A DNA stretch of 64,000 nt from Candidatus Bathyarchaeota archaeon (GTDB taxonomy: Archaea; Thermoproteota; Bathyarchaeia; TCS64): positions 672,001-736,000 of the forward strand of contig CAVYLP010000006.1 in NCBI GenBank assembly GCA_963769425.1, given 5' to 3'. The position numbers and the translations under genes are program-made. How positions within the stretch are numbered: position 1 is the stretch's first letter; each line of letters begins with the position of its first letter. Under the pieces are notes generated by a model, which was not told where the DNA came from, searched no databases, and saw only the letters and a program-made list of their open reading frames with translations. This document shows, piece after piece, positions 6,202 to 58,077 of this stretch.

Positions 6202-9200
6202 TTACTGTGCAGCCTTTCTCTCCGCCCCGCCCCGCATGAAGTCGGTTAGGCTGAACTGCTTCGACAGCTCCTCTGGGACAGCCTCTTCGACGAAGATCTG
6301 GCTGAGTTCGAGCTGGACGAGTTCGAGGCGGTCCACGTAGTATTCGTCCAAGCCGTACTTCTTCACCATGTCGAGGGCGGGTTTCAGGTACTTCTCGATG
6401 CCCCCCCTGTGGACCGTCATCTGTATGGGGCCTCCGCAGCGCTGGCACTTCCCCGCAAGCGGTGGGCGTCTGTATTTCCTGTTGCACTTTGTGCAGCGGA
6501 AGGTCTGGCTCGTGAAGGCGCGGAGGTTTCCGACTATGTCCTTCATGAAGTGGCTGTTCAGGATCTTCAGCGCGACCTGCTTCGCGTCTACCGCGCGGAG
6601 TTTCTGGGCGAGCTCAAGCTGGCTGTCGAGCTTGTCTACCATCGTGGTGAGTGTGTTGTATGCGCCGTGGAAGCTGCCCATGTTTATGTCGCTGCACTCC
6701 TCCGTGTAGCTGAAGCCCTGGAACTGCCCCTCGGTGCCCAATCTGGCCCCGATAGTGTCCACGAGGGCACCGTATTGGCCGCTCCCCGCCCCCTCGGCGC
6801 ACAGCTTGTAGAACTCTGGCGGATAGCTCTCGTTCACGTCAACGTTATGTGCCTCCTTGTCGACCTCGCTGGGGTTGAGGAGGGGGATGACGAAGAGAGG
6901 CGCATCCATCTGGCCGCCGCTCTGCTGTGGGAGGTATGTCTTGCTGAAGTTGAGGAGTGGGTCGAGGGCGAGTAGCACCGCATCCTCGTCGCCGTCGCAG
7001 TTCCTGCGCTTCGCTGCGTGCCAGAGCGGGTGGGCGTACTGGTTTCTGACCCGGGTGAAGCCAACGAGCCTCCCCGAGATCGCCGCGGAGGTATGCGGTG
7101 CGAGCCCCAGCAATAGACATCCTACGAGGTCGCCTCGGCCCTTAGCGTTGTAGAAAGGCTCCATACCGTAGAAGTCGCGGAGCTGATCGTCTAGGAACTT
7201 CGATACCTTGAGGAGGTAGTCGCCGCAGTCCTCAGGGAGGATGACATCCTGCACCTTGAGTTCGAGCATCTGTCCCGAGTCTACGAGGGGTTCCCCGTGG
7301 GTGTCCTTGGTATAACCCAGACTCTTCAGCTTCTCGATGGAGACGCCGACCTCGTCTGGCCTGAAGTGGGTGAGGGGGATGTCGGTTAGGTCGAACCTGA
7401 GGGTGCCGTCCTTGAAGACGCTGAGGTCGTACCGGGCCCTGAGGATGCCCTTGGCGATGTGCTCCGGGGTCCTGGTCTGGTTCATCAGCCTCTTCACGCA
7501 CTTGATGCGTGCCGGGAGCTGGCCGCCGATCATCTTGCGGGCGCTCTCGAGTTCATCCTTGAGGTCTACCTCGACTGAGGCGTATGATACTATCTCGGAG
7601 TGGCACTGCGGGCAGCGCTCCCCCTCGAACCTGAGGCCGCAGCGGCTGCACCTGCGTATCTCCTTCGTCTCGCCGCCGCAGTTCACGCAGACGGCTGCGG
7701 GCCCGATCTCGCCGCAGTCGAGGCACTGGCGCTGGCTGAGCTCGACCCTGATGGTCTTCCCCTTCTCCGCCTTGAGTATATCGCGCTGTGGCCCCCCCGC
7801 CTCGCCGACGGGGTAGAGGCTGTGGACGTACGGGGCCATCCTGCGCTCCTTCGCCTTCTCCGGGCGGCCCATGCGGGCCCCGACGAAGGCCCCCGCCTTC
7901 TCCCTGACGGGGAAGCCTGCGAGGTAGTTCACGACCTCCAGCGGCTTCTCTCCCTTGATCTCGGTGTACCGCTGGTCGAGGCCGAGGGTTTTGGCTAGTA
8001 CGCGGGCGTCCTCACCGAGGTCTAGGCGGCCACCCCTGACCTTGTGGGGGAGTAGTAGATTCTCGAGAGCTACCTTCAACTCGGGTATGTTTGGGTACTC
8101 GGTGGAGTCGGGGCTGTACTCGGTGGCAAGGATGTTCCTGAGGTTTATGACCTCGTCGCGGGTGAGGCTTGACCAGTGGTAGTTCCATCGTGGGTGGATG
8201 GGTACGTCGATTGCGGTTAGAGCGAGAGCCTCGTCAACCGTCGGTCTGTGGAGGGGGCTCGCCTTCAGGTACTCGATCCTCTCGGGGAGGAGCCCCGTGA
8301 GGTTGGCCGACGCGTCGTCCCCGATGCGACGGAGGGCCGCCCTGAGGTCCTGCACGTACTGGTTCTCATCGTACCCAGTGGGGAGGAGGGCCTTGTTGTT
8401 CTGTATGAAGTCCCCCGCGTTGCTGAGGTAGTCGCCGAGGAAGATTATCCTCTCGACGCTTGGGAGGAGGCGGTCAGCCTCGGACTCGGTCTCGACACGC
8501 TGGACGGAGCCGTCCCTTAGCCTTACCACCGGTGGCTCTATCGAGTCGACGGGGCATGTGGCAGCGGATTTACCAGGCAGCTCGGTGCGCATCTGGACAC
8601 CGGTTACGAGGAACTTGTTGAGTATGATCATGGCGGCGGGATGGACGCCGCTTGCGGCGAGGCCCGTGTTCCTCGCTCGCCCGTAGCGAAGGCGGAACCC
8701 GCCGACGGCTCCGGGAAAGCTGAAGACGGGGCGCCCAACGATTATCTCTTCCATGAAAGCGGCGGTGGGCTCCTTCGCCTCCCCCTCTCCCTTCTTCTTC
8801 CTACCCATCTTGAGGAGCCACTCCCAGCCGGTGACCCCAAGCTTGTCGCAGGCGCCGTGAAGCTTCCGGGCGCGGCCAACTACCCCGTCCACGACGACGA
8901 TTAGTGCTCCTCCGCGGAGCCTGTTAGTCTCTATCCCGGCGACGTCTCGGTAGTTACTCACCTCGAACTGGTCTGTTGCGACACCTGTAGCCTCGACGGG
9001 TATCTGGCGTATGGCCGCCTCGAGATCCTCGTCGGTGACGTGGTACTGAAAGCGGCGGACGGTGCGCTCGTAGAGTCGGACCTCTTCGACGAAGCGCTGG
9101 ACCTGGTTCTCGCTTGGCTGATATTTCTCTAGGCCGAGCTTCTTCCTGACATGATCAGCAACAACGAGTGTCATTGCCTGGGCGGTGCCGCCCGCGGGGC

Positions 9201-9639
9201 GGATGGGGCCAGCGAAGTAGAGGCTGAGGTACTGGGTGCGATCCGGGTTGACTTTGATTACTATTTTAGGCAGGCCCTCGATTGGGGCTACGGTGACGCC
9301 CTCAGTCATGATGGCGAGGGCTGTGCGGATCGCCTGGTCGGCCGCTTGCTGTTTCTCGAAGGCTCCGAATCGGCCGAGGGTGATCTCCTCTGCTATCTTG
9401 AAGGCCATTTCTCTGCGGTCCATGCCCTCGAGTTCCCTCATGCGGGCGGTGAGGCCGGGGGGGCCAAGCATCTTCTCAACGCGCTCCGCGATGTCGTGTG
9501 TGATCTGCGCCTCGACCTCCCTGCTCGCGTCGAAACCCTTCGCCCGGGCGGCGCCGGCGACCTCGTAGAGCTTTGCCAGTTTCGCCTCTAGCTCGTCGAA
9601 GTATGCCCTGTTTTCCGGCGTCATGCGGAGCTGGCTCAA
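6202..9639 (-). CDS. polC: DNA polymerase D large subunit DP2
   Basis: YFAGPIR..GGT, GGFRLRYGRARNTG, GARMGRPEKA, catalytic RRNCDGDED and C-terminal Zn finger; no intein insertion. Confidence 0.97.
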   Translation of the reverse strand: MSQLRMTPENRAYFDELEAKLAKLYEVAGAARAKGFDASREVEAQITHDIAERVEKMLGPPGLTARMRELEGMDRREMAFKIAEEITLGRFGAFEKQQAADQAIRTALAIMTEGVTVAPIEGLPKIVIKVNPDRTQYLSLYFAGPIRPAGGTAQAMTLVVADHVRKKLGLEKYQPSENQVQRFVEEVRLYERTVRRFQYHVTDEDLEAAIRQIPVEATGVATDQFEVSNYRDVAGIETNRLRGGALIVVVDGVVGRARKLHGACDKLGVTGWEWLLKMGRKKKGEGEAKEPTAAFMEEIIVGRPVFSFPGAVGGFRLRYGRARNTGLAASGVHPAAMIILNKFLVTGVQMRTELPGKSAATCPVDSIEPPVVRLRDGSVQRVETESEADRLLPSVERIIFLGDYLSNAGDFIQNNKALLPTGYDENQYVQDLRAALRRIGDDASANLTGLLPERIEYLKASPLHRPTVDEALALTAIDVPIHPRWNYHWSSLTRDEVINLRNILATEYSPDSTEYPNIPELKVALENLLLPHKVRGGRLDLGEDARVLAKTLGLDQRYTEIKGEKPLEVVNYLAGFPVREKAGAFVGARMGRPEKAKERRMAPYVHSLYPVGEAGGPQRDILKAEKGKTIRVELSQRQCLDCGEIGPAAVCVNCGGETKEIRRCSRCGLRFEGERCPQCHSEIVSYASVEVDLKDELESARKMIGGQLPARIKCVKRLMNQTRTPEHIAKGILRARYDLSVFKDGTLRFDLTDIPLTHFRPDEVGVSIEKLKSLGYTKDTHGEPLVDSGQMLELKVQDVILPEDCGDYLLKVSKFLDDQLRDFYGMEPFYNAKGRGDLVGCLLLGLAPHTSAAISGRLVGFTRVRNQYAHPLWHAAKRRNCDGDEDAVLLALDPLLNFSKTYLPQQSGGQMDAPLFVIPLLNPSEVDKEAHNVDVNESYPPEFYKLCAEGAGSGQYGALVDTIGARLGTEGQFQGFSYTEECSDINMGSFHGAYNTLTTMVDKLDSQLELAQKLRAVDAKQVALKILNSHFMKDIVGNLRAFTSQTFRCTKCNRKYRRPPLAGKCQRCGGPIQMTVHRGGIEKYLKPALDMVKKYGLDEYYVDRLELVQLELSQIFVEEAVPEELSKQFSLTDFMRGGAERKAAQ

Positions 9640-9669: not shown

Positions 9670-10422
9670 TTAGGCTTGGGCCCGGAGTGCGGAGGTTATC
9701 TCGCGTATGCGCTCCGTGACCTTCATCTCCTCCTCGACGAGGGTTCCGGTGACGATTATCTGGGCGCCCGCCATCTTCGCGGCGACTGCTGCCCTCGCGT
9801 CCCTGATCCCACCGCCGACGATTAGGGTGCCCTTGCAGTACTTGCGTACCGCGCCGATCATCTGTGGGTACACGGGCTGGGGCGCGCCGGAGCCCGCCTC
9901 AAGGTAGATGTAACGCATGCCGAGTAGTTCGGCAGCGGACGCGTAGGCGACGGCCAGTTCGGGGCGGTCGTATGGGACGACGCGTGCCTGTCCGACGTAG
10001 CCCGCTGCTCCGCCGTAGCCGACGATAATATAGCCCATTGGCATCGTCTCTAGCCCGAGCTTCTTCACCATAGGGGCTCCGATGGCCTGGCTGTCTATGA
10101 GGTAGTAGGTGTTGGAGCTGTTGAGTAGGCTCATGAACCAGATGGCGTCGGCAGCGCCGGTAATGCTGGCGATGTTGTTGGGGAAGATGATGACTGGGAG
10201 CTTGACGGCTGCCTTGATCCTCTTGACGGTGTCCTCCATTTCGACTCCCGAGGCCACGGTGCTCCCGCCCACCATTATGGCGGCGGTTCCGCCTGCCTCC
10301 GCGTCCTTGGCGATGGCGGCGCAGTTATAACCCGACTTCTTCTCGGGGTCGAGGAGGGTCATATGTATGCAGCCCTCCGCCTTGATGCGGTCCTGGATCA
10401 GCTGCTCTACGCAGTTAGGCAA
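9670..10422 (-). CDS. Geranylgeranylglyceryl phosphate synthase
   Basis: HMTLLDPEK, IMVGGS, YLEAGSGA, VGGGIR and IIVTGT motifs. Confidence 0.93.
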   Translation of the reverse strand: MPNCVEQLIQDRIKAEGCIHMTLLDPEKKSGYNCAAIAKDAEAGGTAAIMVGGSTVASGVEMEDTVKRIKAAVKLPVIIFPNNIASITGAADAIWFMSLLNSSNTYYLIDSQAIGAPMVKKLGLETMPMGYIIVGYGGAAGYVGQARVVPYDRPELAVAYASAAELLGMRYIYLEAGSGAPQPVYPQMIGAVRKYCKGTLIVGGGIRDARAAVAAKMAGAQIIVTGTLVEEEMKVTERIREITSALRAQA

Positions 10423-10666
10423 CCTTCTGCGTCGCCCCCTCCTCGTAGTACTTGTCGACGAACGTGCTGTATGCGTCGACGGGGGCCGTGTTGGGCTCTA
10501 TGGTTATGCGTCCATGTAGGCCGCAGGCGCTGCAGCGTATGCCGGCGAGGTTGTTCTTGGGGTCGATTGTGACTTTTATGGAGTTCTTGGCGCAGTTGGG
10601 GCAGAGGAACAGCTCGGGCAGAGTCTTCCTTATGATTTTTTCTTCCTTCTTCCTTCTTCTTCCCAT
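10415..10666 (-). CDS. elf1: Transcription elongation factor Elf1
   Basis: MGRRRKK basic N-terminus, F.CP.C...C..CG zinc ribbon and PVDAYS.FVD. Confidence 0.9.
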   Translation of the reverse strand: MGRRRKKEEKIIRKTLPELFLCPNCAKNSIKVTIDPKNNLAGIRCSACGLHGRITIEPNTAPVDAYSTFVDKYYEEGATQKVA

Positions 10667-10699
10667 GGACGTGTCTCCTTTAAGCGTTAACGTAGGGGC

Positions 10700-11494
10700 T
10701 CAGCTTAGTCTTAAGATTGCCGGAAGTGTGCGTTTGTGCTCATTGGCGGCTATCCTCGCTATGATCCCCTCGACGCTCCGTTGATCGACGCACGTCTCCG
10801 AGGCTATACGAGCCGGTGCCCAGCCCTTGAGGTGTGTGTGGACTATGAGGTCTATGCTATCGTAGGGAAGCCCGAGGTCCTTCTCCGTATCCTGCCCAAG
10901 CCAGAGGCGCGCCGATGCGGGCTTCTCCGTTATGCTCGTGGGGACGCCGAGGTACCTGCCTAGGGCGCGGATCTGGCACTTGTAGAGATCCGCGAAGGGC
11001 ATGATATCCACTCCCCCGTCCCCGTACTTCGTGTAATAGCCAAGGTAGAGCTCGGTTTTGTTCGACGTGCCCATCACCATGGCTCTCCGGGTGTTGGCGA
11101 AGTAGTAGGTTAGCAACATCCTGAGGCGGGCTTTCATGTTGCCGTAAGCGATCCTGTCAGATGGGTCGAATCCGGGGATGTTTTCACGCATCACGTGTAA
11201 CATCGGCGTGATTTCGACGTGCTCACACGTGACTCCGACTGTCTCACAGAGGCGTATCACATCGTCGACGTCTGCGTTTGGTGTGATATCACGCTCAGGG
11301 AGGGTCAGCGCGGTGACATTTTCAGGCCCAAAAGCCTTCACTGAGGCGGCTAGTGCTGTAGCCGAGTCTATTCCGCCACTTACAGCAACCACGATGCCTC
11401 TTAATCCCGCCGACTTGATCGTGTTTTGAATAAATTCTGAGATTTTTTCGCTGGTTTTTTGCGGGTCGATATTTAGCTGCTCGATGCCGATCAT
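10700..11494 (-). CDS. nadE: NH3-dependent NAD+ synthetase
   Basis: SGGIDS, GNMKARLRM, GTSNKTE, GYYTKYGDG, PSA.LW.GQ.TE and HKR motifs. Confidence 0.95.
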   Translation of the reverse strand: MIGIEQLNIDPQKTSEKISEFIQNTIKSAGLRGIVVAVSGGIDSATALAASVKAFGPENVTALTLPERDITPNADVDDVIRLCETVGVTCEHVEITPMLHVMRENIPGFDPSDRIAYGNMKARLRMLLTYYFANTRRAMVMGTSNKTELYLGYYTKYGDGGVDIMPFADLYKCQIRALGRYLGVPTSITEKPASARLWLGQDTEKDLGLPYDSIDLIVHTHLKGWAPARIASETCVDQRSVEGIIARIAANEHKRTLPAILRLS

Positions 11495-11681
11495 TGGGTT
11501 TCATGTGACGTGGAAGGATTAAATCGTTTCTTTATGTGATTTTTATGATAATTTTAGCTATTTATGCCTTGTTTTTTGCTGATTTGGGAGAATATCAGAT
11601 GTTTGAGCACATGTTACACTAGGAATGGCCTGTTTAGAGGCTGAATCAAAAGATTGATATGGCATACAGTTCTGTATACAA

Positions 11682-11702
11682 TGGTATCATTATGTGATAC
11701 CA
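11682..11702. promoter_or_regulatory. Inverted repeat TGGTATCA-N5-TGATACCA, putative operator
   Basis: Perfect 8-bp inverted repeat 21 bp upstream of the 11724 start; both arms resemble the GTGATATCAC motif. Confidence 0.55.
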
Positions 11703-11723
11703 ATAGATATGGGGCGTGAATGA

Positions 11724-12182
11724 GTGGAGTCCACTAAAGAGACCCAAAATATGATTCAGAAAGCATTTCAGGACCCAATAACAGACCTGTTACTAAATAA
11801 CAGCAATTTAACGAGGACTCAGTTTGAAACACTCATGATTGACCTATTAATTGACGTAATGTCCGATGAAAAGGTTCCGTTTAAAGATAAGACCTTATTT
11901 AGAACCCATAAGGTTAGTCGAGGTTCATTTAGCCGCACATTAGGGCAAGCTAGGCATAGAGTGATATCTTCAATCTTCACTATAGTCCTCCTTAGCTATG
12001 TAGGAGTCTATGACGCTAAGCCCTTTGAGGAATATCAAAATCTCTCAGAAAAATTGAGAGAATACCTCTCCGAGATCGAGAAGTCTGGTACCAAGTCACC
12101 AGCCCTACTTAGACGAATAGAGGAGGAATTGACTATGGGAATAGAGTCTCTGTCACACCCGACGAAGCTGAAGGTGGTGTGA
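11724..12182 (+). CDS. Uncharacterised protein with putative HTH-like DNA-binding segment
   Basis: 152-aa ORF filling the nadE-hypF gap; SNLTRTQFETL...KVSRGSFSRTLGQAR resembles an HTH, followed by a hydrophobic helix and a coiled C-terminus. Confidence 0.75.
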   Translation: MESTKETQNMIQKAFQDPITDLLLNNSNLTRTQFETLMIDLLIDVMSDEKVPFKDKTLFRTHKVSRGSFSRTLGQARHRVISSIFTIVLLSYVGVYDAKPFEEYQNLSEKLREYLSEIEKSGTKSPALLRRIEEELTMGIESLSHPTKLKVV

Positions 12183-12189
12183 TATCACA

Positions 12190-14514
12190 CTAAATCACAG
12201 ATGTTAGGGCAATACAGGATTGGCCTAAGGAGGATCCCCCGTCGCCTAACGGCGTTTTGGTGTTCGTCAACACATCTAATCCTGTTTTTTCGACGTTTTT
12301 GATGATTCTCTGCGAAATGTTTCTGTTGACTAGCACACCACCCGAGATCGCTATTATATTGATGTCCTCTGCTCTGGCTACATCTATAGCCATCTCTGAA
12401 ATACCATCGGCTAAATATTTCTGTACAAAAGCCGCAATATCTTCTTTTTTAAGGGTATTTTTGTTATCTATTAGATATTTAAGCATATTTGCAGTTTTTA
12501 ACTCATAAATACGGTTATTATTCTCTATTTGAGGCTCATATTTTACCGTCTCTGGGCTACCTTTTTCCGCTAAGGATTCTAGTCTCATAGCTGGCTCACC
12601 TTCGTAAGTTCTGTAATAAGTTAAACCTAGTAAAGAGGCGACCGAGTCAAGTAATCTGCCCGAGCTAGAGGTTTTTAGGACGTTTTTAACCCTCGACTGC
12701 TTGATAATCAAGTCGCGTTCATCTAAACCGTTAGGTAACGCTTCTTCTATGTGATTTTCTGTGATATCACGCAACTCATTATCGCTTAGTACGGTGGAAA
12801 GGGCTGCGATAAGCATTCTATAGGGGTACATCGCACATAGGTCTCCTCCCGGCATGGGTAGATACTCAAGCTGACCGGTCCGTTTATAGTCTGAATAGGT
12901 CGAAATTAGCACTTCTCCACCCCAGATCGCTCCATCTGGCCCATATCCCGCACCATCTAGGGCTATCCCGACGACGTTCTCATCCGGCTTTACGCCATTC
13001 TCAGCGCACACGGAGACTATATGGGCGTGATGATGCTGTGACCTTGTGATTTCCACGCCCATCTCTTGTGATATCACTCCCGCCAACTGTGATGTCATGT
13101 AACCGGGATGCTGGTCACAGGCTATCACATCGGGGTTACGTGTGATTCTGAGGATGTCACGCAAGGCGTGGATGGCGCTTTTCTCGTATTCCAAGGTCTC
13201 TAGGTTGGTTATGTCACCAAGGTATTGGGTCTGGTAGCATTTCCCGTCTAGCGTGACCGAGGCTGCGTTACTTTGCTCCGTACCAACTGCGAAAGATATG
13301 CCCTTTTTAATGGGTATTTCAACAGGATCGGGCACATAACCACGCGATCTCCTCACAAAGGCCACACGCCCATCGTTGACGCGCATGAGGGAGTCGTCGC
13401 ACCTGTTCACTATCTCCCTGTTGTGGACGAGGAAATAGTCGGCAACGCCCCTAAGGTCACTGAGGGCGTCCTTGTTCGTTATAGCCATGGGCAACCCAGA
13501 CCTGTTACCGCTCGTCATGACGAGGGCCAGACCGTCAAGCCTCTTGAAGAGCATCACCTGTATCCCAGTGTAGGGGAGCATCACGCCGACACGACTCAAC
13601 CCCGGCGCGACGAGATCGGAGATCTCTCCGCTCCGCCTCTTTACGAGGACTATCGGCTTCTGCCAGGAGACCAGCGCCCTCAACTCGTAGATGTCGGGGG
13701 AGGCGAAGCTCTTCACGGCCGCGAGGTCAGGAGCCATGAGGGCGAAGGGCTGGTACGGTCTGTTCTTACGGGCCCTCAACTTCTCGACTGGGCCATCCTC
13801 GGTGGCGAAGGCAGCGAGGTGGAATCCACCGATCCCCTTGACAGCAACAATGCTCCCTTCCCTCAGCAGCTTCGCCACCTCCGCGAAGACGTCGCTGACT
13901 TTTATCTCCACCCCAGAGGCGTCCAGCAGGCTCATCTTGGGGCCGCAGATGCTGCAGGTTATTCCCTGCGCGTCGAATCGCCTGTCGAGTGGGTTCCTGT
14001 AGTCGCTCTGACAGTGCCTGCACATGGGGAAGGCGTCCATATGTGTCCTCTCCCTGTCGTAGGGTAGGGACCTGACCCCGGTGAACCGTGGGCCGCACCA
14101 GGCGCAGGCCGTGAAGGGGTACTCGAACCACCGTCCCCCCTTGTCCTCCATGTCCCTGAGGCAATCGGGGCAGATCCCGATGTCGGGCGGGAAGATGCCC
14201 GAAGCGGCGTCCCTGCCGCTCCTGCTACGGTCAATGACGAACTCTGTGAACCTACCCCTGTAGGGTCTGTAAGAAGAGTGTATCCCAGTGATCTCGGATA
14301 CGGGCGGCGCCTCCGCTTGTATCGACTTGATGAATGCCTCCACGTTCTCGGTTGGGCCCTCGACGACGGCTTCGACCCCCGCGTCCCCGAGGTTTATGAC
14401 GTATCCCCTGAGCCCGTGGCGGACCGCCAGACGGTAGATGAAAGGGCGGAAGCCCACGCCCTGCACCCTGCCGGTCACGTGGACCTCGGCCTCGACGCTG
14501 CCCGGGGAGCCCAA
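12190..14514 (-). CDS. hypF: [NiFe]-hydrogenase maturation carbamoyltransferase
   Basis: Acylphosphatase domain GRVQGVGFRPF, two Zn fingers, KGIGGFHL, MTSGN, QHHHAH, DGAGYG.DG.IWGGE and GDGG.SLGQ. Confidence 0.95.
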   Translation of the reverse strand: MGSPGSVEAEVHVTGRVQGVGFRPFIYRLAVRHGLRGYVINLGDAGVEAVVEGPTENVEAFIKSIQAEAPPVSEITGIHSSYRPYRGRFTEFVIDRSRSGRDAASGIFPPDIGICPDCLRDMEDKGGRWFEYPFTACAWCGPRFTGVRSLPYDRERTHMDAFPMCRHCQSDYRNPLDRRFDAQGITCSICGPKMSLLDASGVEIKVSDVFAEVAKLLREGSIVAVKGIGGFHLAAFATEDGPVEKLRARKNRPYQPFALMAPDLAAVKSFASPDIYELRALVSWQKPIVLVKRRSGEISDLVAPGLSRVGVMLPYTGIQVMLFKRLDGLALVMTSGNRSGLPMAITNKDALSDLRGVADYFLVHNREIVNRCDDSLMRVNDGRVAFVRRSRGYVPDPVEIPIKKGISFAVGTEQSNAASVTLDGKCYQTQYLGDITNLETLEYEKSAIHALRDILRITRNPDVIACDQHPGYMTSQLAGVISQEMGVEITRSQHHHAHIVSVCAENGVKPDENVVGIALDGAGYGPDGAIWGGEVLISTYSDYKRTGQLEYLPMPGGDLCAMYPYRMLIAALSTVLSDNELRDITENHIEEALPNGLDERDLIIKQSRVKNVLKTSSSGRLLDSVASLLGLTYYRTYEGEPAMRLESLAEKGSPETVKYEPQIENNNRIYELKTANMLKYLIDNKNTLKKEDIAAFVQKYLADGISEMAIDVARAEDINIIAISGGVLVNRNISQRIIKNVEKTGLDVLTNTKTPLGDGGSSLGQSCIALTSVI

Positions 14515-14644
14515 ACCGATTCACAGCTATGAGGCGACTCGATTATTAAACGATGAGTCCCAGACTCCCTCACGCAGTGAGAGCAACCAAAGGATAAAAA
14601 AGCCAGACCGGTGACATTCACATGAGAGCATAGTCGGCGATACC

Positions 14645-15313
14645 TTGGATCTCACGATAACCGCGGCCGCCCTATTACTAGTCACCGTAGTCGCCTCCAT
14701 CATCTTTTACCGCAGGATAAAGGAGGCGACATCCGAGTACAACGGCGCTAAGGAGTTCGTCCACAACTTAACCTTCGGCTTCACCCGCCAGGTCAACCAC
14801 CTTCAGCAGGACGTAGCTAAGGCCGAGAATGAGGCGACGACGGCCAAGATCGTTGCGTCTGAAGCCCTGAGGAACAGTGGCGAGGCGAAGGAGGCGACCC
14901 TCAAGGGCCTCGAGGCCGTGAAGACCATCCAGAGCCGTGTAGACTCCACCGAGTCTGAGGTCGATTCCATTAGGAGGGAGGTCCAGAAGCTCGCCGCCGC
15001 CCCGAAGCAGCGCGTGGTCGTACGCCAGGACATAGCAGCCCCAATCCCCGTACAGCAGGGCAATATACTAGCGCAGCTGACGGAGACCGAGCTGAGCGCT
15101 CTCAAGAAGATTGCTGAGCTCGGCGAGGGGGCTGTCCCTGAGATCAAGGAGCACCTCGGCACCACCCGTGAGCACACAGCGCGTACACTCAAGAAGCTCT
15201 ACGAGTCCGGCTTCGTTGACCGCAGCACCAACGCCATGCCCTACCGCTACAGCGTCCGTAAGGAGATACGCGACCTCATCCAGCAACAGCCGGAGCAGAA
15301 GCCGACGCTGTAG
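14645..15313 (+). CDS. Membrane-anchored coiled-coil protein with C-terminal winged-HTH
   Basis: N-terminal TM helix, heptad-rich middle, and C-terminal LTETELSAL...TREHTARTLKKLYESGFVDR...PYRY wHTH. Confidence 0.8.
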   Translation: MDLTITAAALLLVTVVASIIFYRRIKEATSEYNGAKEFVHNLTFGFTRQVNHLQQDVAKAENEATTAKIVASEALRNSGEAKEATLKGLEAVKTIQSRVDSTESEVDSIRREVQKLAAAPKQRVVVRQDIAAPIPVQQGNILAQLTETELSALKKIAELGEGAVPEIKEHLGTTREHTARTLKKLYESGFVDRSTNAMPYRYSVRKEIRDLIQQQPEQKPTL

Positions 15314-15314
15314 A

Positions 15315-15343
15315 ACCCCCTGCCCTAAAAGAGGGGAGGGGGT
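15315..15343. terminator. GC-rich hairpin immediately after the 15313 stop
   Basis: ACCCCCTGCCCT-AAAAG-AGGGGAGGGGGT, 11 of 12 bp paired. Confidence 0.4.
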
Positions 15344-15635
15344 CAAAAACCAAGCCCAAAATCAGCCTTTTTCAGCCGGGTGAACCCGAAAAACACGCTG
15401 ATTGTTTCTGATTATGTACCAAAACGTGCATTTAAGTCATACATTCAGCGAATGATTTACGCTGATCCTCCGTCGCCAAAGAAAACCAAAAAAAGGTCCC
15501 AAACGCGAAAAACCGAGAAATTAGGAGGAAACGCGACGGCGGCGAAGGTACCCCCTTCCCCAACGTTCACGCACGTGGAGACACACCCACACAGCCGAGC
15601 AGCCTTTATACCCCCAAACCCACCACAGATACGAA

Positions 15636-15977
15636 ATGAAGACCAACAGTGTAGACAAGGCACCACGAATGAGCCCCGCAAAGGGAGTAGAGATCATAAT
15701 CCTTGGCAGTAGCGACAAAGTCATGCTCACACACATCATCGCCCAACCTGGCGCAATAGTCCCCGACCACAAGCATCCACACGACCAGATAGGCACATGC
15801 ATCAAGGGCGAAGGCGTCCTCACATCCGGGGGCAAGAAGTTCAAGACCGTCCCCGGCGCCAGCTGGTACATCCCCGGAGGAGAGAGCCACGATTGGGTCA
15901 ACACCAGCAAGGGCGAGACTATCCTCATAGAGACCTTCGCCCCCCCACGCGAGGATTACTTATCCAAGGCCAAGTAA
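15636..15977 (+). CDS. Cupin-domain protein
   Basis: H.HPHDQ...G and IPGG..H motifs, FAPPREDY tail; TTTATA at 15605. Confidence 0.88.
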   Translation: MKTNSVDKAPRMSPAKGVEIIILGSSDKVMLTHIIAQPGAIVPDHKHPHDQIGTCIKGEGVLTSGGKKFKTVPGASWYIPGGESHDWVNTSKGETILIETFAPPREDYLSKAK

Positions 15978-15996: not shown

Positions 15997-17475
15997 TTGA
16001 GCGAGCAGACCCCCCAGTTCCTGCAGCGCATAATCGAGGCAGGCTACCAGCTAAGCCCGGACGCCTACGCCTACCTCATGGGGCTACCCGCCGAGACAGC
16101 AGACACCCTATCACAAAAGGCCGTTTTGAAGGCAGACTCTTCCTCCCCTCCTCTCTTCGTGCTCGATAAGGGCTACCTGCTAGTACTCGTCGAGACTCCC
16201 CGACCGGAGCCCCTCCCTCAGAAGAACCGTCCAATACCCGCTAGGGACAAGGGCACGTCTCTCAAGGTTCTCGATGAGGAACCCGCACAACCAGCCAGCG
16301 ACGCCGAGGGCTTCCTCCAGTACTTCCAGAGCCGATACGACCGCCTCGAGGCTATACTCAAGCGCCGCGTCGACGTGAAGGACGCCATACCGATCGAGCA
16401 GGCGCTCAAGCTCCCCCTCAAGACAAAGCTCAAGACAACCGGCATCGTCTCCGAGAAACGAACCAGAGGCAACAAGTTATTCATCGAGCTCGAGGACCGC
16501 CGCTCCACAATCAGCGTCATGGCCACAGACGAGGACGTCATGCACCGCGGCTTGGAGCTGCAGGAGGATCAGGTCATCGCCGTCGACGCAGTCAAATACA
16601 CAGACGACCTGCTGATCGCAAACGACTGGATCTGGCCCGACGTCCCAAATAACACCCCTAGACGAAGCCCTGACCCACTATATGCGGCCCTGCTCGCGGA
16701 TGTCCACGTCGGCTCCAAATACTACAGGGGCGACCTCTTCGACAAGTTCATCGACTGGATGAACCTCGAACTCGGTCCGCCACAGAGCAGGGACGCAGCT
16801 GCGCGCGTCAAGTACGTCGTCATAGCTGGTGACCTCGTCGACGGCGTCGGTATATACCCCGAGCAGCTGGACGAACTCACCATATCCGACATACGAGAGC
16901 AGTACAGGGCGGCCGCGGAGCTCCTCAAGCAACTACCCGACTACGTGGAGATCGTCGTGACCCCTGGCAACCACGACGCGACCCGCCACAGCATGCCTCA
17001 GCCCCCCATACCCAAGGAGTACGCTAAGGAGCTGCACGAGGACCCGCGCGTCAAGATGCTATCCAGTCCCTGCAGGCTTAACCTAAACGGAGTCGAGATC
17101 CTCGTCGAGCATGGCAAGGGGATGGACGACATACTCAGCAGCACGCCCGGCTACGAGTTCCAACACCCACTGAAGGCGATGGAGCTCCTCTTTAGATGCC
17201 GCCACCTTGCCCCCCGCTACGGACAGAGCACTCCGATCGCCCCCGAGCGCACTGACCGGCTCGTCATTGGTAGCGTTCCCGACGTCATGCTCATGGGGCA
17301 CATCCACATCAACGAGACCAAGCGCTACAAGGGCGTCACACTGGTCTCCGCGGGTTCGTGGCAAGATCAGACCCCCTTTCAGAAGCGTATGCAGATAGAA
17401 CCCACGACGGGTGTTGCCACAATATTCGACTTGCAGACCCACCAGACTCTTGACCTCGACTTCAAGCGCTTCTAG
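15997..17475 (+). CDS. polB: DNA polymerase D small subunit DP1 (proofreading exonuclease)
   Basis: OB fold plus phosphoesterase motifs DVHVGS, AGDLVDG.GIYP, PGNHD, RHLAP.YG and GHIH. Confidence 0.95.
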   Translation: MSEQTPQFLQRIIEAGYQLSPDAYAYLMGLPAETADTLSQKAVLKADSSSPPLFVLDKGYLLVLVETPRPEPLPQKNRPIPARDKGTSLKVLDEEPAQPASDAEGFLQYFQSRYDRLEAILKRRVDVKDAIPIEQALKLPLKTKLKTTGIVSEKRTRGNKLFIELEDRRSTISVMATDEDVMHRGLELQEDQVIAVDAVKYTDDLLIANDWIWPDVPNNTPRRSPDPLYAALLADVHVGSKYYRGDLFDKFIDWMNLELGPPQSRDAAARVKYVVIAGDLVDGVGIYPEQLDELTISDIREQYRAAAELLKQLPDYVEIVVTPGNHDATRHSMPQPPIPKEYAKELHEDPRVKMLSSPCRLNLNGVEILVEHGKGMDDILSSTPGYEFQHPLKAMELLFRCRHLAPRYGQSTPIAPERTDRLVIGSVPDVMLMGHIHINETKRYKGVTLVSAGSWQDQTPFQKRMQIEPTTGVATIFDLQTHQTLDLDFKRF

Positions 17476-50683: not shown

Positions 50684-52099
50684 TTGAAAATCAAGATTTT
50701 ATCAATAATGATCTCATTTTTACTCGTTGTAAATTCGTTAGGGTTGATCGGTGCGCGTGCAAGTGACACGATTAGTGCATCGGATTTCCAGCTGGGTAGT
50801 TGGTCGAAGACGATCGATCTTTTTGATTATGCTCGACAGCACGCTGAGTCTGTGGGTGGTGTTCCGCCGCCAGAGAACTGGACTAGTGACACGGTGGTCA
50901 ACTACATCAATCAGAATGGTTTCAAGCTCCTCTACATGGGCTTCGCCGGGGTTGACTATGGCAGCGCCAAGTTCCAGCTACCCCTTCAGTCCGTAGTTGA
51001 AAGCTTTAACACGACCAAGGGTGAACCAGCCATGACCGCTTCTAGTTTCCTAATGCTCATGGCATTCAATGACACGAAAACCTCCCTATACGCGGGTTCA
51101 CCCGATAAGGGCGACAACCTCTGGGCATCGTTCACAATGGGGTCGGATTATAGTGAAGTTTTACCTGAGGGGAAGACGCCCAAGCTCACCACGAGTGTTG
51201 AGATTACTCAGTTGAAGGTCTCTGGCAACGAGTACACCTGGGGGATGACGTACAAGAACCTAGAAGCAATCTGGTGGAGCATCGCGGGGAGTGTGCCGAA
51301 GCTCTTGCCGGCCGCCCTCTGCGTATACGACGAGCTCGGCTTCAATTATCGTCTAGTGTTCAACCCAGGCGACGGTACCGCGAAGCTCTACGTGACCTAC
51401 ACCCTCGGTGAGATGCATGACCTCTGGACGGTGGGTCACGTCGGTTTCATTCCCGTCGTGGTGCACTACAATAGCACCGGTTTGTACGGTCCATTGGGGA
51501 AGAAGGCTGGTTCTGAGACTATTCACGATTTCCTCGAACGGAACAAGATCAGCATGAGCATCGTGATGAGTCAGAGGACGTGGGTGGCTGATAAGGAGGT
51601 CTCAAACAAGGTGAATGGTTCGGGCGCTATCTCGGATGGTGTTGACGTCAGCTCTGGAAGCGTTCAATCCACGACCTCCGATGGGCAGAAGGTATCAGAT
51701 GTCAGCTTCGGTGAGAAGAAAACCTACAAGCTCGAGGAGGCTACAGGAGAGAAGACCTACGACGCCGTGACGAGGATAGCGGATGTGAACTTCTATGCTA
51801 GGAACCCGGTTCTAAGGCTGCAGAATTCTCTCCTCCTCTACTCGAATGCCTTCATGTCCCACATGTTCCCATCGAAGTACGCCGAGACCGCCAAGGTATG
51901 GATGAACGCGACGAAGTCCGACTACCTATTCATCACATCATATCCAACCTACAGCGGATACCAAGTGATACATGACCCAGTATACACGGCTTACACTCCG
52001 CCGAAGACCACTGCGGGTGGTGCAGTACCCATCCCGAGCATTGCAGTTCTAATTGGAGTAGTCATAGTTGTCATCTTCCTAGCGAGGAAACGAAGCTGA
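50684..52099 (+). CDS. Secreted cell-surface protein with C-terminal membrane anchor
   Basis: Signal peptide, N-x-S/T sequons, IHDP motif, Thr/Gly linker, then VPIP, TM helix and RKRS. Confidence 0.8.
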   Translation: MKIKILSIMISFLLVVNSLGLIGARASDTISASDFQLGSWSKTIDLFDYARQHAESVGGVPPPENWTSDTVVNYINQNGFKLLYMGFAGVDYGSAKFQLPLQSVVESFNTTKGEPAMTASSFLMLMAFNDTKTSLYAGSPDKGDNLWASFTMGSDYSEVLPEGKTPKLTTSVEITQLKVSGNEYTWGMTYKNLEAIWWSIAGSVPKLLPAALCVYDELGFNYRLVFNPGDGTAKLYVTYTLGEMHDLWTVGHVGFIPVVVHYNSTGLYGPLGKKAGSETIHDFLERNKISMSIVMSQRTWVADKEVSNKVNGSGAISDGVDVSSGSVQSTTSDGQKVSDVSFGEKKTYKLEEATGEKTYDAVTRIADVNFYARNPVLRLQNSLLLYSNAFMSHMFPSKYAETAKVWMNATKSDYLFITSYPTYSGYQVIHDPVYTAYTPPKTTAGGAVPIPSIAVLIGVVIVVIFLARKRS

Positions 52100-52128
52100 A
52101 CCTAGAATAACTCAACGAAGCGATTGAA

Positions 52129-52445
52129 TTGCCTGGAGTGTTATCTGGCTTCAGTAAGGTCATTTTATCCTTAGCTATAGGTTTCATCATCTCCACCGTT
52201 ATCCGGGCTCTATTCTGGAACGCTCCTAATGGTCAGCTGATAATAATCGCCTTCAACCTCATCAGCATAGTTGGAGGGATTTTGGCTTTGTCGAGTCAGA
52301 AGTATTGGTCCATGACCTACCTCTTTGGCTATTTAGCGGGGCTCTATTTCTTCTCGGTAGGTACTTTGTTTCAGATTGGGAGTTCATTCTCTACATGGCA
52401 GTGGGTACTTTTTTCGTCTTCAATAAAATTAGGCACAGGTTCTGA
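52129..52445 (+). CDS. Small multi-pass membrane protein (apparent 2-bp insertion near 52355)
   Basis: Hydrophobic helices; the alternate frame gives ...FFGRYFVSDWEFILYMAVGTFFVFNKIRHRF ending at 52445. Confidence 0.6.
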
Positions 52446-52521
52446 GACGTGTCGTTTCCTCCTATATTCATGGGATGGAAAGTTTTACTAGGCTTCTGGG
52501 CGTCTGGTTGCTCGATCTCTC

Positions 52522-53652
52522 TTGTCTCTCGTTGGTAAGTCTGTGGCTGAGGTTCCGACTCCGGCTCTGCTGCTGGATCTGGATAAGTTTGAGTGGAATG
52601 TTGAGAAGATGTTCACTTTTGCCAAGAAGGTTGGGGTGAACGTGCGTCCTCACGCGAAGACGTTCAAGGCTGCTGCTATCTGTAACCGGCTGATCGCGGC
52701 AGGTGCGATCGGTGTGATGACTCAGAAGCTGAGTGAGGCTGAGGTGCTGCTGAACAGCGGGATCCTGTACGGGGATAAGAATATCCTGGTGAGTCAGGAG
52801 CTGGCGGATCCGGGGAAGGTGGAGCGGCTGGTGGGGCACAACGTGGCTATGGGGGAGGGGAAGGTTCTCACCAGCGTCGACGATGCGCGTGAGGTGGACA
52901 TGCTGGATGAGGCGGCGCTCAGGTGGAAGGTGAAGCAGCATGTTGTCATCGAGATGAGTCACGGGCGCTGCGGGACGGCGCCGGGGAAGCCGACGGTCGA
53001 CCTCGCGGAGCACATCGCCAAGAAGAAGGGGCTCGTGTTCCGGGGAATCTACGGGTACGAGAACCCGGTGAAGAGGGAGCTGGCACTTGAGAGGGATAAG
53101 CTGACTGTGGACACCGCGGAGATGATCAGGGCGGCTGGTATTCCGGTGGAGATCGTGTCGGCGGGTTCGACGGACACGTATGAGGTGACCGGTTCGTATC
53201 CAGGAATCACCGAGATTGAGCCGGGGAGCTTCGTCTTCGGAGCGGGTCCGGAGGGGAGCGGGTACGGGTGGAGTAGCAACAACAACGTCTACTTCAAGAG
53301 CAGCTTGACAGTGCTGTCGCAGGTGATCAGCGACAACTTCTCGGATAGGGTTGTGTTAGATGCTGGTTTGAAGGTGTTGAGTGGGGGTGACCCGGACGCG
53401 GTGCCGGCGGTGCTAGCCAAGAAGGATGGGGAACCTATCCACTTTGAGAAGGCTGGGTTGAGTGAGGAGCATTGCACGCTACGATTCAAGGAGGGTGATC
53501 CTGAGCGGAAGAGGATTAGGTGGGGGGACAAGCTGGAGCTAACTCCGAGTCACTGCTGCACATGTGTCAACCAACATGATGAGATGCTTGTGGTGAAGAA
53601 TGGGCGTGTTGCAGCGGTATGGCCTATAACAGCACGTGGTAGATACACATAG
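52522..53652 (+). CDS. DSD1/D-threonine aldolase-like fold-type III PLP enzyme
   Basis: TPALLLD, RPHAKT.K, G.T.T, E..PGSFVF, DAG.K, SEEH and H.C..VN..D motifs. Confidence 0.88.
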   Translation: MSLVGKSVAEVPTPALLLDLDKFEWNVEKMFTFAKKVGVNVRPHAKTFKAAAICNRLIAAGAIGVMTQKLSEAEVLLNSGILYGDKNILVSQELADPGKVERLVGHNVAMGEGKVLTSVDDAREVDMLDEAALRWKVKQHVVIEMSHGRCGTAPGKPTVDLAEHIAKKKGLVFRGIYGYENPVKRELALERDKLTVDTAEMIRAAGIPVEIVSAGSTDTYEVTGSYPGITEIEPGSFVFGAGPEGSGYGWSSNNNVYFKSSLTVLSQVISDNFSDRVVLDAGLKVLSGGDPDAVPAVLAKKDGEPIHFEKAGLSEEHCTLRFKEGDPERKRIRWGDKLELTPSHCCTCVNQHDEMLVVKNGRVAAVWPITARGRYT

Positions 53653-53990
53653 CCTCTATGGTTTACCCTCTCTCATCACAAACAATTAGGGTAATTTTTT
53701 TTCCCCGAACGGGCGATGTTCTGACTGTAGTGGGGTGTTGAGCGACCCAAGGGTCGCTAGAAGTTCTGGTAGATAGGGATTGTGGTAAGCAGGAAAAAGA
53801 GGTCTCAGATTCAGGCTAGCGCGGGGATGAAGCAGGGAAAGAGACTGGCGCTAGTCAGAAAGTTCTCTGACGAGGAGGATTTGTACTAGTACGTACGTAC
53901 CCCTTTTTCCCTAGAATATGGGATGGAAAAAGAGAGATTTTAGAGTTGAATGATAAATGTTAAAAGAAGGTTCCAATTAAATTCCATAGT

Positions 53991-54533
53991 ATGTCTAATA
54001 TCGTTGCGAAAATAAAAATTGACAAGAATTTAGGTATCATTGAAGTCGAAGGGACAGAAATATTCGTTAAAGAAATGATTGAAAAATATGGAACTTTAAT
54101 TCTTACATCAGTGAAAAAGCCTGACATACCCCCAAAAGCTCCTCCAGAACAAGGTAAACCAGAAGGAGTAAAGCGTCGTAAGCCAGCAACAGTGTCTGTA
54201 GAAGCTGTAGAAATCGACCTAAATTCCGGAGCGAATTACTCCTCATTAAAGGACTTCTATAACACGAAACAGCCAGAATCTTTCATTGAAAAGACAACGT
54301 TGTTTACATACTACCTAAAGCAATTCAAAGAGATTCAAGAAGCAACTCCCGGCCATTTACTAACATGTTATCGGAGCGTAGGTTCAAAACTTCCTAAGAA
54401 TATTCCTCAAACAATTTTAGATGCAAAACAGAAAGGTTGGCTAGCACCTGATTCAAGTGTCAATAGTGCAAAAATTGGTAACATTGGAATTAATTTAATT
54501 GAACATGAATTACCAAAACGGAAAGAAAAATAG
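53991..54533 (+). CDS. Hypothetical protein: beta-hairpin/helix N-domain plus wHTH-like C-domain
   Basis: KIKID...IIEVEGTEIFVKE N-terminus, Pro/Lys linker, and LKDFY..K.P...KGWL...GINLIE. Confidence 0.7.
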   Translation: MSNIVAKIKIDKNLGIIEVEGTEIFVKEMIEKYGTLILTSVKKPDIPPKAPPEQGKPEGVKRRKPATVSVEAVEIDLNSGANYSSLKDFYNTKQPESFIEKTTLFTYYLKQFKEIQEATPGHLLTCYRSVGSKLPKNIPQTILDAKQKGWLAPDSSVNSAKIGNIGINLIEHELPKRKEK

Positions 54534-54535
54534 AT

Positions 54536-55450
54536 TCACTTAATTTTATCTATTACTTCTTGAATCCAATTTATTCCTCTTGAGGTTATGATTACTTTAT
54601 TTCCACTTCTAGTTATTAATTTTCTACCATTCATATTTGATAATTGTGTTGATAAATGTTCTACCTCATGACCGCTCTTTTTCAATAAAGTATCTAATAA
54701 GTCAAAGCTATAATCGAATTTGGTAAAACCAAGAGCGTATAGTATTATTCCGATTCCTTCCAACTGATTTAAACTCTTATCGGTAATAATTATTGGACCA
54801 TCCCGCTCGAATCTTATAATCGAGGAGGGAATTACAGGAAATAATAGCACTTCATTTAGTGCCTCAAATAAAATTGTTTGGAAATTTAGAGAAATTATAT
54901 CGATACCTAAGGCATTGAGAAAATCATTTGCTAAAAACTCCAAATGATTTATCAATACATATATCGAACCAACTATAGAAAAAACCGCATCTGTACGTTC
55001 TGATATTGGTCCATAATGAGCGGCTGTTTTTCTATTTCGTATAGTATAAAAATTATTCCAAGATGTAGGTAGTATTTTCTTAATACGAATATCCGTATAT
55101 CTTGTTTGATTTACAAATTCTCTAGATGTTGTTTCCTCGTCATTTTTAGTGGGGAATGAATTACCAAAGACAATTGGATATAATGATTTATACGAACCTT
55201 CACATGTTACACCTCCATCTAAAACCACGTGAGAATATTGACTAGGACCTTGTCTTATCCCAATTAACCCAGTTAAAACTGGGTGCAAGGGGGCAACTAT
55301 TGCTATGGCTAAATCCGGGTTTGTAGGAAAAACTGAATCACCAATACTTCTTAATCTTGTAAATAAAACAAATACTGATTCCGGACAAGAGGAATCACCT
55401 AATGTTCTATCAAGTACCTTAAGAATATCTGAATATGAGGGTAATGACAA
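54536..55450 (-). CDS. Hypothetical protein with HEPN-like R-x4-6-H motif and C-terminal wHTH
   Basis: YTIRNRKTAAH in a helical domain; C-terminus LSTQLSNMNGRKLITRSGNKVIITSRGINWIQE. Confidence 0.65.
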   Translation of the reverse strand: MSLPSYSDILKVLDRTLGDSSCPESVFVLFTRLRSIGDSVFPTNPDLAIAIVAPLHPVLTGLIGIRQGPSQYSHVVLDGGVTCEGSYKSLYPIVFGNSFPTKNDEETTSREFVNQTRYTDIRIKKILPTSWNNFYTIRNRKTAAHYGPISERTDAVFSIVGSIYVLINHLEFLANDFLNALGIDIISLNFQTILFEALNEVLLFPVIPSSIIRFERDGPIIITDKSLNQLEGIGIILYALGFTKFDYSFDLLDTLLKKSGHEVEHLSTQLSNMNGRKLITRSGNKVIITSRGINWIQEVIDKIK

Positions 55451-55453
55451 AGT

Positions 55454-55906
55454 CTATACGGTCCAATAAACCCATTTTCCGTCTTCTTCAGTACCTTTAA
55501 TTTTACCTGATTTCAGCCGATAGTTTAAAGCTGTTCTAACCGTATCGCGTACCTTTTTTCCGGTGGACGGATAGCCTTTATTTTTAAATTCTGATAATAT
55601 TTGGTCCATATCTTTCTTTTGAGGAATTTTCATGAAGTTGCTATTAATGATTTCATCTAGTACTGGTGACAACGTAGCAGTACGTTTTCCTCCACGTTTA
55701 TCCTCCTTTTGAGGCTTTTCGACTTCCTGTTCTCCATCAGCAAGATTAGTAGTTTTTACTGGTTCAGATGTAGAAGTAGCCCAATTAAAGGCCTTTTCAT
55801 AATATTCAAAAATCTTTTCTTCTGAGCCTTCTAAAGATATTTCTTTTTCTCCGACCTTGACTTTAAAATTAGCTTTTGATTTTTCTTCCATGATTACTAT
55901 ATGCAT
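55454..55906 (-). CDS. Hypothetical protein: beta-hairpin/helix N-domain plus wHTH-like C-domain
   Basis: FKVKVGEKEISLEGSEEKI N-terminus resembles that of ORF 53991; C-terminus VRTALNYRLKSGKIKG...KWVY. Confidence 0.7.
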   Translation of the reverse strand: MHIVIMEEKSKANFKVKVGEKEISLEGSEEKIFEYYEKAFNWATSTSEPVKTTNLADGEQEVEKPQKEDKRGGKRTATLSPVLDEIINSNFMKIPQKKDMDQILSEFKNKGYPSTGKKVRDTVRTALNYRLKSGKIKGTEEDGKWVYWTV

Positions 55907-58062: not shown

Positions 58063-58077
58063 GTTCCGATCCCGTAT

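Follow-up and report, generated by a model that had tools for sequence, protein, structure and literature searches.

Bacterial centromeres of the ParB/parS type consist of conserved 16-bp palindromes that are few in number, clustered, and often placed inside coding sequence. Auxiliary operators that act through looping are known from lac, where O2 lies inside lacZ, and from gal and deo, and in Bacillus the Noc/NBS and RacA/ram systems use tens of sites distributed over large regions, proteins with ParB-like or MerR-like folds, and peripheral attachment. In the archaeon Sulfolobus acidocaldarius, the full-length triple repeat of segS occurs once, upstream of segA; it is non-palindromic, and SegB partners a ParA-like ATPase (PMC12139799). 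UBP is a beta-rich protein of 111 amino acids with hundreds of sites (PMC12141716), and winged helices of the TrmB family are reported to bind TATCAC-N5-GTGATA, the hexamers of which recur in the motif studied here (PMC4158304). Here we describe a locus of Candidatus Bathyarchaeota archaeon (GTDB lineage Bathyarchaeia; TCS64) in which a 10-bp palindrome is clustered around the gene of an all-helical protein of 152 amino acids, p152, near the gene of a predicted membrane-anchored winged-helix protein of 222 amino acids, TM-wHTH. The window, the whole stretch of DNA analyzed, comprises 64,000 nucleotides (positions 672,001 to 736,000 of contig CAVYLP010000006.1, here C6) of assembly GCA_963769425.1, a genome of 6 contigs and 2,551,316 bases; positions without a contig name are those of the window. 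We found no published description of the motif, of p152 or of their arrangement, and the full-text matches to the motif that were listed were unrelated and apparently of primer type.

Within the window, the perfect palindrome GTGATATCAC occurs at four positions only, 11283, 12179, 12761 and 13068, the same that an earlier note on this DNA had reported from the letters alone, and a search with the degenerate form GTGAYRTCAC (motif B) returned the same four sites. Dinucleotide-preserving shuffles of the window held 0.09 copies on average, and 0 of 100 reached four. The genome-wide count that the note had proposed as a check revealed one sharp cluster: of five perfect copies in 2.55 Mb, four lie here, within 1.8 kb. 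The sole copy outside the cluster is at C6:554106, 129 kb away. The hexamer GATATC is found 491 times in the genome against 506 expected, neither depleted nor in excess, and restriction-site dynamics therefore fail to explain the cluster. One copy had been described as extended, and it indeed reads GTGTGATATCACAC over 12177–12190. The half-sites TGTGAY/RTCACA, which the note had called many, are concentrated to the point that the eight densest 200-bp windows of approximately 51,000 genome-wide all fall in the locus, with seven half-sites in 13001–13200 compared with a genomic mean of 0.12. Its list of near-copies (11694, 11961, 13089 and 13208) held up in part: each has two mismatches to the palindrome, and since the genome has 538 such matches they are unremarkable as a class, whereas the copy at 13089 is conserved in hypF orthologues.

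The palindromes are spaced 896, 582 and 307 bp apart and are distributed over p152 (11724–12182, plus strand) and its two neighbors on the minus strand, nadE (NAD synthase; 10700–11494; Pfam PF02540, E 5.6e-68) and hypF (carbamoyltransferase; 12190–14514; Pfam HypF domains). The left array (11180–11292), in the 5′ third of nadE, is made up of TGTGA/TCACA-like half-sites and ends in palindrome B1 (11283–11292). Palindrome B2 (12179–12188) runs across the stop codon of p152, is 1 bp away from that of hypF, and is joined by an extra ATCACA half-site at 12194 to form a central composite site (12174–12199). B3 (12761–12770), on R-D-I-T codons inside hypF, forms a second composite site with a TGTGAT half-site (12750–12775). 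In both composite sites, the central one and that at +582, the palindrome and its one half-site are 4–5 nt apart, and the two 26-nt stretches are an inverted match with 85% complementarity. The right array, also inside hypF (13037–13146), contains half-sites at 13037, 13045, 13088, 13114, 13124 and 13141, palindrome B4 (13068–13077) and TGTGATGTCAT (13088–13098). Arrays of half-sites thus lie distally on the outer palindromes (11180–11282 and 13088–13146), often with a spacing of 8–11 bp, and an AT-rich zone extends over 11400–12850, where GC content is 0.33–0.46 compared with about 0.6 in the flanks.

The palindromes are DNA sites under selection and not a coding by-product. They are read in different frames, as the earlier note had stated and as we verified, yielding R-D-I-T in NadE and HypF and V-I-S in HypF, while one overlaps the TGA stop of the p152 open reading frame. 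For 19 p152-adjacent hypF orthologues we compared the C-terminal 490 codons, in which the majority nucleotide at third positions has a mean frequency of 0.54. Only two runs of at least 9 nt have every nucleotide conserved at 89% or more: TGTGATATCAC (12760–12770), which is the B3 site and the most conserved DNA run in these orthologues, and TGTGATGTCAT at 13088–13098. A test for synonymous conservation had been suggested in the note, and the codons beneath the sites are indeed frozen in hypF, those at B3 being fixed as CGT/TGT GAT ATC ACR. In three lineages the arginine has become cysteine (TGT) with the motif intact, and in locus L032 the motif stands at the same place of hypF in another reading frame. 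In hypF genes that are not adjacent to p152, none of five has a match even with one mismatch allowed; at this place they encode R-D/E-F-L.

The sites also outlast the genes that host them. Five loci (L016, L017, L019, L024 and L031) have no hypF, and a very AT-rich non-coding gap of 260–1300 bp holds the sites together with dense half-site arrays. A relic of hypF is retained in the gap of L016 (tblastn E 0.004), which also matches 13068–13146 over 80 bp of DNA; a search for such relics in the gaps of the other four found nothing at E ≤ 10. On the other side, nadE is reduced to relics in L004, L011 and L014, yet the left site and its array stay at the same distance. The claim of the earlier note that protein constraint does not account for the motif is therefore borne out by survival through host-gene decay and through changes of frame and residue. 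Two further loci have altered nadE genes: in L003 the p152-adjacent copy is apparently fragmented, with tblastn pieces in different frames, and in L010 it is strongly diverged (36% identity); both keep the left palindrome or a variant of it with one mismatch.

Conservation of the cluster was followed in 32 fetched p152 loci of relatives, each of at most 6.5 kb, and in a class set of 121 genomes of at least 90% completeness. In 32 Bathyarchaeia genomes, 81 of 96 perfect copies fall inside the fetched p152 loci. Their offsets from the p152 stop are fixed at about −890 to −900, −3, +579 and +886, with the consensus YGTGATATCACR, and more distant lineages use GTGACATCAC or GTGACGTCAC instead. At least two GTGAYRTCAC sites lie within 1150 bp of the p152 stop in 29 of the 32 loci and at least three in 23; at the stop itself, 26 loci have a perfect site and 29 have a GTGAYRTCAC variant. 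Eleven of eleven further class genomes with p152 showed, among the matches listed, two to four sites no more than about 400 bp downstream of p152. The sites hence recur around orthologues of the gene at 11724, including those whose flanking genes are different or in decay, which the note had named as a point to check.

Composition changes along with the sites. GC content at third codon positions (GC3) of hypF drops from 0.90 at the 5′ end to 0.24–0.46 at the 3′ end, beside p152; the same drop is present in six of seven other p152-adjacent hypF genes, compared with a flat profile in all four hypF genes located elsewhere. The GC3 of nadE is the mirror image of that of hypF, and those of PcrB and the TM-wHTH gene are near 0.8. 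This gradient could reflect either selection for AT-rich DNA in a complex or a local mutational bias.

Two proteins of the locus came into consideration as binders. The gene for p152 is near-universal in the class, present in 110 of 121 genomes, single-copy in 32 of 41 relatives, and its family counts 365 representatives at E ≤ 0.001. Profile searches of p152 against Pfam, NCBIfam and PDB gave no significant family, and neither PHROGs nor PADLOC gave a match; in ESM Atlas it falls in clusters of Bathyarchaeota hypothetical proteins, with Sigma70_r4 as a weak lead (score 0.82, 14% of members). The predicted structure has seven helices, with a predicted local distance difference test score (pLDDT) of 84.7, and its best Foldseek hits in PDB were cyclins, at E 0.49 and a template modeling score of 0.15. 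Modeled in two copies, p152 scored 0.61 compared with 0.00 for the best control; among proteins solved as one-chain pairs, 20 of 30 came up to that mark, and among those solved as single chains, 1 of 23 did; the dimer runs agreed in at least 77% of contacts with a pLDDT of at least 60. These models support a symmetric p152 homodimer, suited to a palindrome, with a predicted interface of residues 10–41 and 79–95 that leaves the conserved stretch SRGSFSRTLxQAR exposed. One relative (L012, G015:C23:289885-290344) has p152 split, residues 1–127 being followed by 127–152 in another frame, and all four palindromes are present there; the split is a frameshift or an assembly error.

A second palindrome, motif A, precedes p152. 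It reads ATACAGTTCTGTAT at 11664–11677, overlaps TGTATACA (together 11664–11680), lies 47–60 bp upstream of the p152 start, and is unique in the genome. Of the 32 Bathyarchaeia loci, 27 have its general form ATACR-N4-YGTAT no more than 150 bp upstream of p152. Outside the class, p152 homologues of about 130 amino acids (p152h) occur in Nitrososphaeria, where the gene order DP2-PcrB-p152h-TM-wHTH is kept and the last two genes are 12–55 bp apart; TTATAC-N6-GTATAA stands just upstream of p152h in 7 of 7 loci, and TGTGA-N(9-11)-TCACA lies between p152h and TM-wHTH in 3 of 7. In L030, a locus of family f6, motif A is kept, with no motif B, no half-sites after p152 and no TM-wHTH. There are therefore two palindromes and two candidate DNA-binding proteins, and we propose that ATACA-N4-TGTAT is p152's own operator. 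One of the seven Nitrososphaeria loci, L041 (JARVKA010000006.1), is the sole one with the Bathyarchaeia-type motif: a copy with one mismatch lies within its PcrB match, a perfect one some 50 bp away from that match, and ATGATATCAC flanked by TCACA/TGTGA repeats between p152h and TM-wHTH.

TM-wHTH (14645–15313, plus strand) is the other candidate. It matches MarR in Pfam at 32.4 bits (cut-off 24.6) and TrmB, PF01978, at 27.3 bits (cut-off 25.6) over residues 145–203, its other Pfam matches being helix-turn-helix or coiled-coil families. PHROGs and PADLOC gave generic winged-helix similarity (CasR/Csa3) only, and a PDB sequence search gave only coiled-coil noise. The AlphaFold model (AF2; pLDDT 83.3, predicted template modeling score 0.35) consists of one helix over residues 2–118, a disordered linker at 122–138 and a C-terminal winged helix. 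The first 22 or so residues are hydrophobic in 8 of 8 aligned orthologues, and the long helix is predicted to comprise an N-terminal membrane helix followed by a stalk of about 95 residues. No simple rule of co-variation emerged when recognition-helix residues were compared by eye with the motif's central dinucleotide (TA, CA or CG).

By presence and absence, the site cluster tracks the TM-wHTH gene and not p152. A profile search detected TM-wHTH in 95 of the 121 class genomes; in four families it is absent or nearly so (f6, 0 of 3; f14, 0 of 3; f19, 0 of 4; f16, 1 of 8, the one match being doubtful, with E 3e-4 in a frame of 1193 amino acids). The same four families have p152 in 17 of 18 genomes, of which nine have at most one GTGAYRTCAC in total and five others have 0 of their 21 copies within 30 kb of p152. 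The cluster is thus counted as missing in 14 of the 17 genomes with p152 and without TM-wHTH, a count that does not include G049, G083 and G112 by place. The reverse case is G035, an assembly of 89% completeness: its TM-wHTH gene follows a non-coding stretch of about 1.2 kb that carries TGTGA/TCACA arrays as well as GTGACGTCAC, and a profile search for p152 there found nothing at E ≤ 1. Because of this co-occurrence, the hexamers shared with TrmB sites and the architecture of TM-wHTH, we assign motif B to TM-wHTH and motif A to p152. The earlier note had put forward the 152-residue protein as the binder of the cluster, and the at least 14 genomes in four families with p152 and with neither the TM-wHTH gene nor the cluster count against that proposal.

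From the sites, their uniqueness, their coding-independent conservation and their co-occurrence with the TM-wHTH gene, all of which are observed, we infer a binder, looping, membrane attachment and an output as follows. TM-wHTH dimers, joined via the stalk, would occupy, as high-affinity sites, all four palindromes together with both outer arrays of half-sites. The bound sites, at about −896, 0, +582 and +889 bp, would gather some 1.8 kb of AT-enriched DNA around p152 into one looped nucleoprotein complex, and because TM-wHTH is proposed to be membrane-anchored, the DNA would be held at the cytoplasmic membrane. A p152 homodimer would occupy the separate and equally conserved ATACA-N4-TGTAT at its own promoter. 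The p152 and TM-wHTH genes would be an ancient pair, co-operonic in Nitrososphaeria and located beside the PolD genes. The output would be control of transcription of a p152/TM-wHTH unit, possibly including DP1, or positioning of the PolD-flanked locus at the membrane, and we lean slightly toward regulation by looping. Taken as a whole, this is the explanation that we consider best, with somewhat better than even confidence.

Several points weigh against it, and some of them speak for p152 as the binder. The assignment to TM-wHTH draws on co-occurrence in related genomes, which are not independent, and p152 binding the sites merely to regulate the TM-wHTH gene would give the same co-occurrence, since joint loss of sites and TM-wHTH is expected if the sites only regulate that gene. 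For a winged-helix dimer, a palindrome of 10 bp with half-sites of 5 bp is short and of unusual geometry, and the order of the half-sites is reversed relative to the Thermococcales motif. Membrane insertion is predicted from one feature, the hydrophobic N-terminal helix. The cluster is centered on p152, with its most conserved site overlapping the stop of that gene; in G038 the sites stay beside p152 though a TM-wHTH homologue lies 7 kb away. Under this alternative, a p152 dimer would grip the palindromes with the polar, basic first half of a long helix (residues 62–78), ahead of the hydrophobic interface, and the sites would be operators for the TM-wHTH gene and for p152 itself; the predicted exposure of SRGSFSRTLxQAR and the distal array about 20–180 bp upstream of the TM-wHTH start in hypF-less loci would fit. 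In hypF-bearing genomes the sites lie 1.4–2.3 kb from the TM-wHTH promoter, and the intergenic region between hypF and TM-wHTH has single half-sites only, an arrangement that is awkward for binding by TM-wHTH and, in placing the sites away from that promoter, for p152 as well. No DNA-binding family was detected for p152 in the searches above, its own promoter palindrome is still present in L030 in the absence of motif B, and in G035 the arrays precede TM-wHTH although the search for p152 came back empty at E ≤ 1. We regard it as rather unlikely that p152 binds the cluster.

The output can be read in two ways. Looped auto- or cross-regulatory operators are the ordinary alternative and, by analogy, may explain why the sites are spaced as they are and why lineages lacking hypF have arrays close to the promoter; they account less readily for sites that are perfectly conserved and that became fixed de novo in hypF and nadE, and for the AT gradient. 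Alternatively, the locus may be a hitherto unrecognized chromosome–membrane attachment site, at which TM-wHTH would tether the GTGAYRTCAC cluster between the PolD genes as a centromere-like anchor or to position the replisome, with p152 as a dedicated regulator, in Bathyarchaeia and in simpler form in Nitrososphaeria, and with the AT gradient as the trace left by a nucleoprotein zone under permanent occupancy or strain. Such a role is compatible with all observations, including loss in some lineages, and we rate it as rather unlikely. As for segregation, no ATPase gene was found in the conserved cluster, and there is no ParA-like gene among the 18 open reading frames scanned with Pfam (504–23194 and 50684–61420), those at about 23.5–50.5 kb being unscanned and the rest of the genome not searched for it.

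A passive origin of the sites, as a by-product of peptide or codon bias, through restriction-site dynamics, or as scars or ends of mobile elements, has in its favor that two sites encode R-D-I-T in the same frame and that the composition of the locus is atypical. We consider it very improbable given the shuffled expectation, the unbiased count of GATATC, the lack of sites in hypF elsewhere, their survival of host-gene decay, and the persistence of the motif through a frame shift and an amino-acid change; additionally, the locus has no repeats longer than 26 nt and no relevant PHROG or defense-system matches, its synteny is stable, and it is single-copy. The locus might instead be a replication origin, with an AT-rich unwinding zone between inverted boxes and with local proteins as origin binders. 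Consistent with this are the RPA-like, PolD DP2 and PolD DP1 neighbors, synteny across two classes, the mirrored arrays that bound the AT-rich zone, and the existence in archaea of accessory origin-binding factors, UBP/ucm (PMC12141716). The upstream intergenic DNA of orc1/cdc6 also spans only about 170 bp without obvious repeats, and inspection by eye of the DNA upstream and downstream of that gene revealed no obvious repeat boxes. However, the locus is on C6, whereas all matches above the TIGR02928 cut-off, and with them the sole orc1/cdc6 gene (C1:24423-25517), are on C1, which puts that gene at a distance of at least 341 kb. Four families include at least 14 genomes without the cluster that have p152 and, where seen, the PolD synteny; the Nitrososphaeria gene pair lies in compact DNA without a long AT-rich gap; and the putative unwinding zone is mostly coding sequence. 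Furthermore, the locus, at 684 kb of C6, is 43 kb away from the contig's significant strand-corrected GC3-skew switch, which maps to about 727 kb (bootstrap 727–734 kb; 0 of 300 permutations). An origin here is thus improbable, and a literature search on Bathyarchaeia origins found nothing relevant. The phrase with which the earlier note had summarized the locus, an undescribed archaeal nucleoprotein locus, still characterizes it fairly; its suggestion of replication initiation has become unlikely on these grounds, and none of our results favors a terminus or division-site coupling.

Raw cumulative GC skew on C6 mostly mirrors gene orientation, and the polarity of the switch at about 727 kb resembles that of a terminus if the bacterial rule is applied and that of an origin if gene orientation is taken as the guide; because of this ambiguity we did not use the switch to name an origin. 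The sharp plus-to-minus switch at 53900–56600 of the window (C6 about 726–729 kb) coincides with a 2.4-kb AT-rich island of GC 0.29–0.37, which contains open reading frames at 53991–54533 (plus), 54536–55450 (minus) and 55454–55906 (minus), without a Pfam family and adjoined by a DEAD-box helicase, and is a candidate replication terminus or origin. An opposite, minus-to-plus switch lies at about 68 kb of C1 (0 of 200 permutations), 43 kb from orc1/cdc6, and more such switches occur on C2, C3, C5 and C6 (about 1005 kb), which may mark several origins or rearrangements. Among the relatives, G021 (L048–L163) is listed as one contig of 2.30 Mb and contains 103 runs of exactly 100 N; it represents about 100 joined contigs, so that positions across the N runs are meaningless and their order is uninformative.

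The wider neighborhood includes DNA polymerase D on both sides, with the large subunit DP2 at 6202–9639 (minus strand) followed by PcrB at 9670–10422, and the small subunit DP1 at 15997–17475 (plus strand); an RPA-like gene is also among the neighbors, and the PolD synteny is kept across the class and in Nitrososphaeria. Between hypF and TM-wHTH, the inverted repeat CTCAC-GCA-GTGAG and single TCACA half-sites (14560–14575 and 14617–14630) are conserved in the close relatives L009, L010 and L013 and may be a local promoter operator. The open reading frame of 110 amino acids at 15380–15712, between TM-wHTH and DP1, is of proline/lysine-rich low complexity without a Pfam match and is probably not a gene. 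An Rfam search of six loci gave no credible RNA, and for 10600–15400 of the window no matching RNA data sets were listed, the only matches being DNA contigs with shares of at most 0.20.

Bathyarchaeia are among the most abundant uncultured archaeal groups, and their chromosome organization, segregation and regulation are almost uncharted. The locus pairs a 10-bp site with two small proteins, class-wide and partly into the ammonia-oxidizing Nitrososphaeria, between PolD genes. It is an unusually clean case of DNA-level selection overriding the choice of codons, and even of amino acids, in housekeeping genes, and it illustrates just as cleanly how sites can outlast their host genes. If the membrane-anchored winged helix binds the sites, it would be the first candidate for a sequence-specific tether between chromosome and membrane in archaea; if the arrangement is an autoregulatory loop only, it would still be a new family pair with defined operators.

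Compared with described systems, the locus resembles ParB/parS in having few, clustered palindromes, nearly all the copies of the genome, at the locus of the candidate binder. It differs in that Pfam detects no ParB/CTPase domain in p152 or TM-wHTH, the cluster has no ParA-type partner, the site is 10 bp, and the candidate binder is a predicted integral-membrane winged helix. Autoregulation is common in the TrmB family, and TM-wHTH shares with TrmB regulators a winged helix above Pfam cut-offs, the hexamers GTGATA/TATCAC (PMC4158304) and, as putative targets, palindromic sites. In contrast to the Thermococcales site TATCAC-N5-GTGATA (PMC4158304), the order of the half-sites is inverted here, and they overlap where that site has a 5-nt spacer; moreover, TM-wHTH has a membrane anchor and a helix of about 95 residues instead of a sugar-binding effector domain, and there is one many-site locus rather than a dispersed regulon. 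As with the Sulfolobus SegAB/segS system, an archaeal site-specific binder would be paired with a unique high-affinity site beside its own operon (PMC12139799), and as with UBP/ucm, an accessory archaeal motif would occupy a specialized chromosomal locus (PMC12141716). The operators of lac, gal and deo offer a parallel in sites 300–900 bp apart, some of them in coding sequence, around a promoter region, whereas the sites described here are perfect over 10–12 bp across the class, outlive their host genes, and are accompanied by a synonymous AT gradient and a membrane-anchored candidate binder. Finally, like Noc/NBS and RacA/ram, the proposed complex would bring palindromic sites to the membrane or pole through a sequence-specific binder, with the difference that it would do so at a single 1.8-kb locus and through a predicted transmembrane helix.

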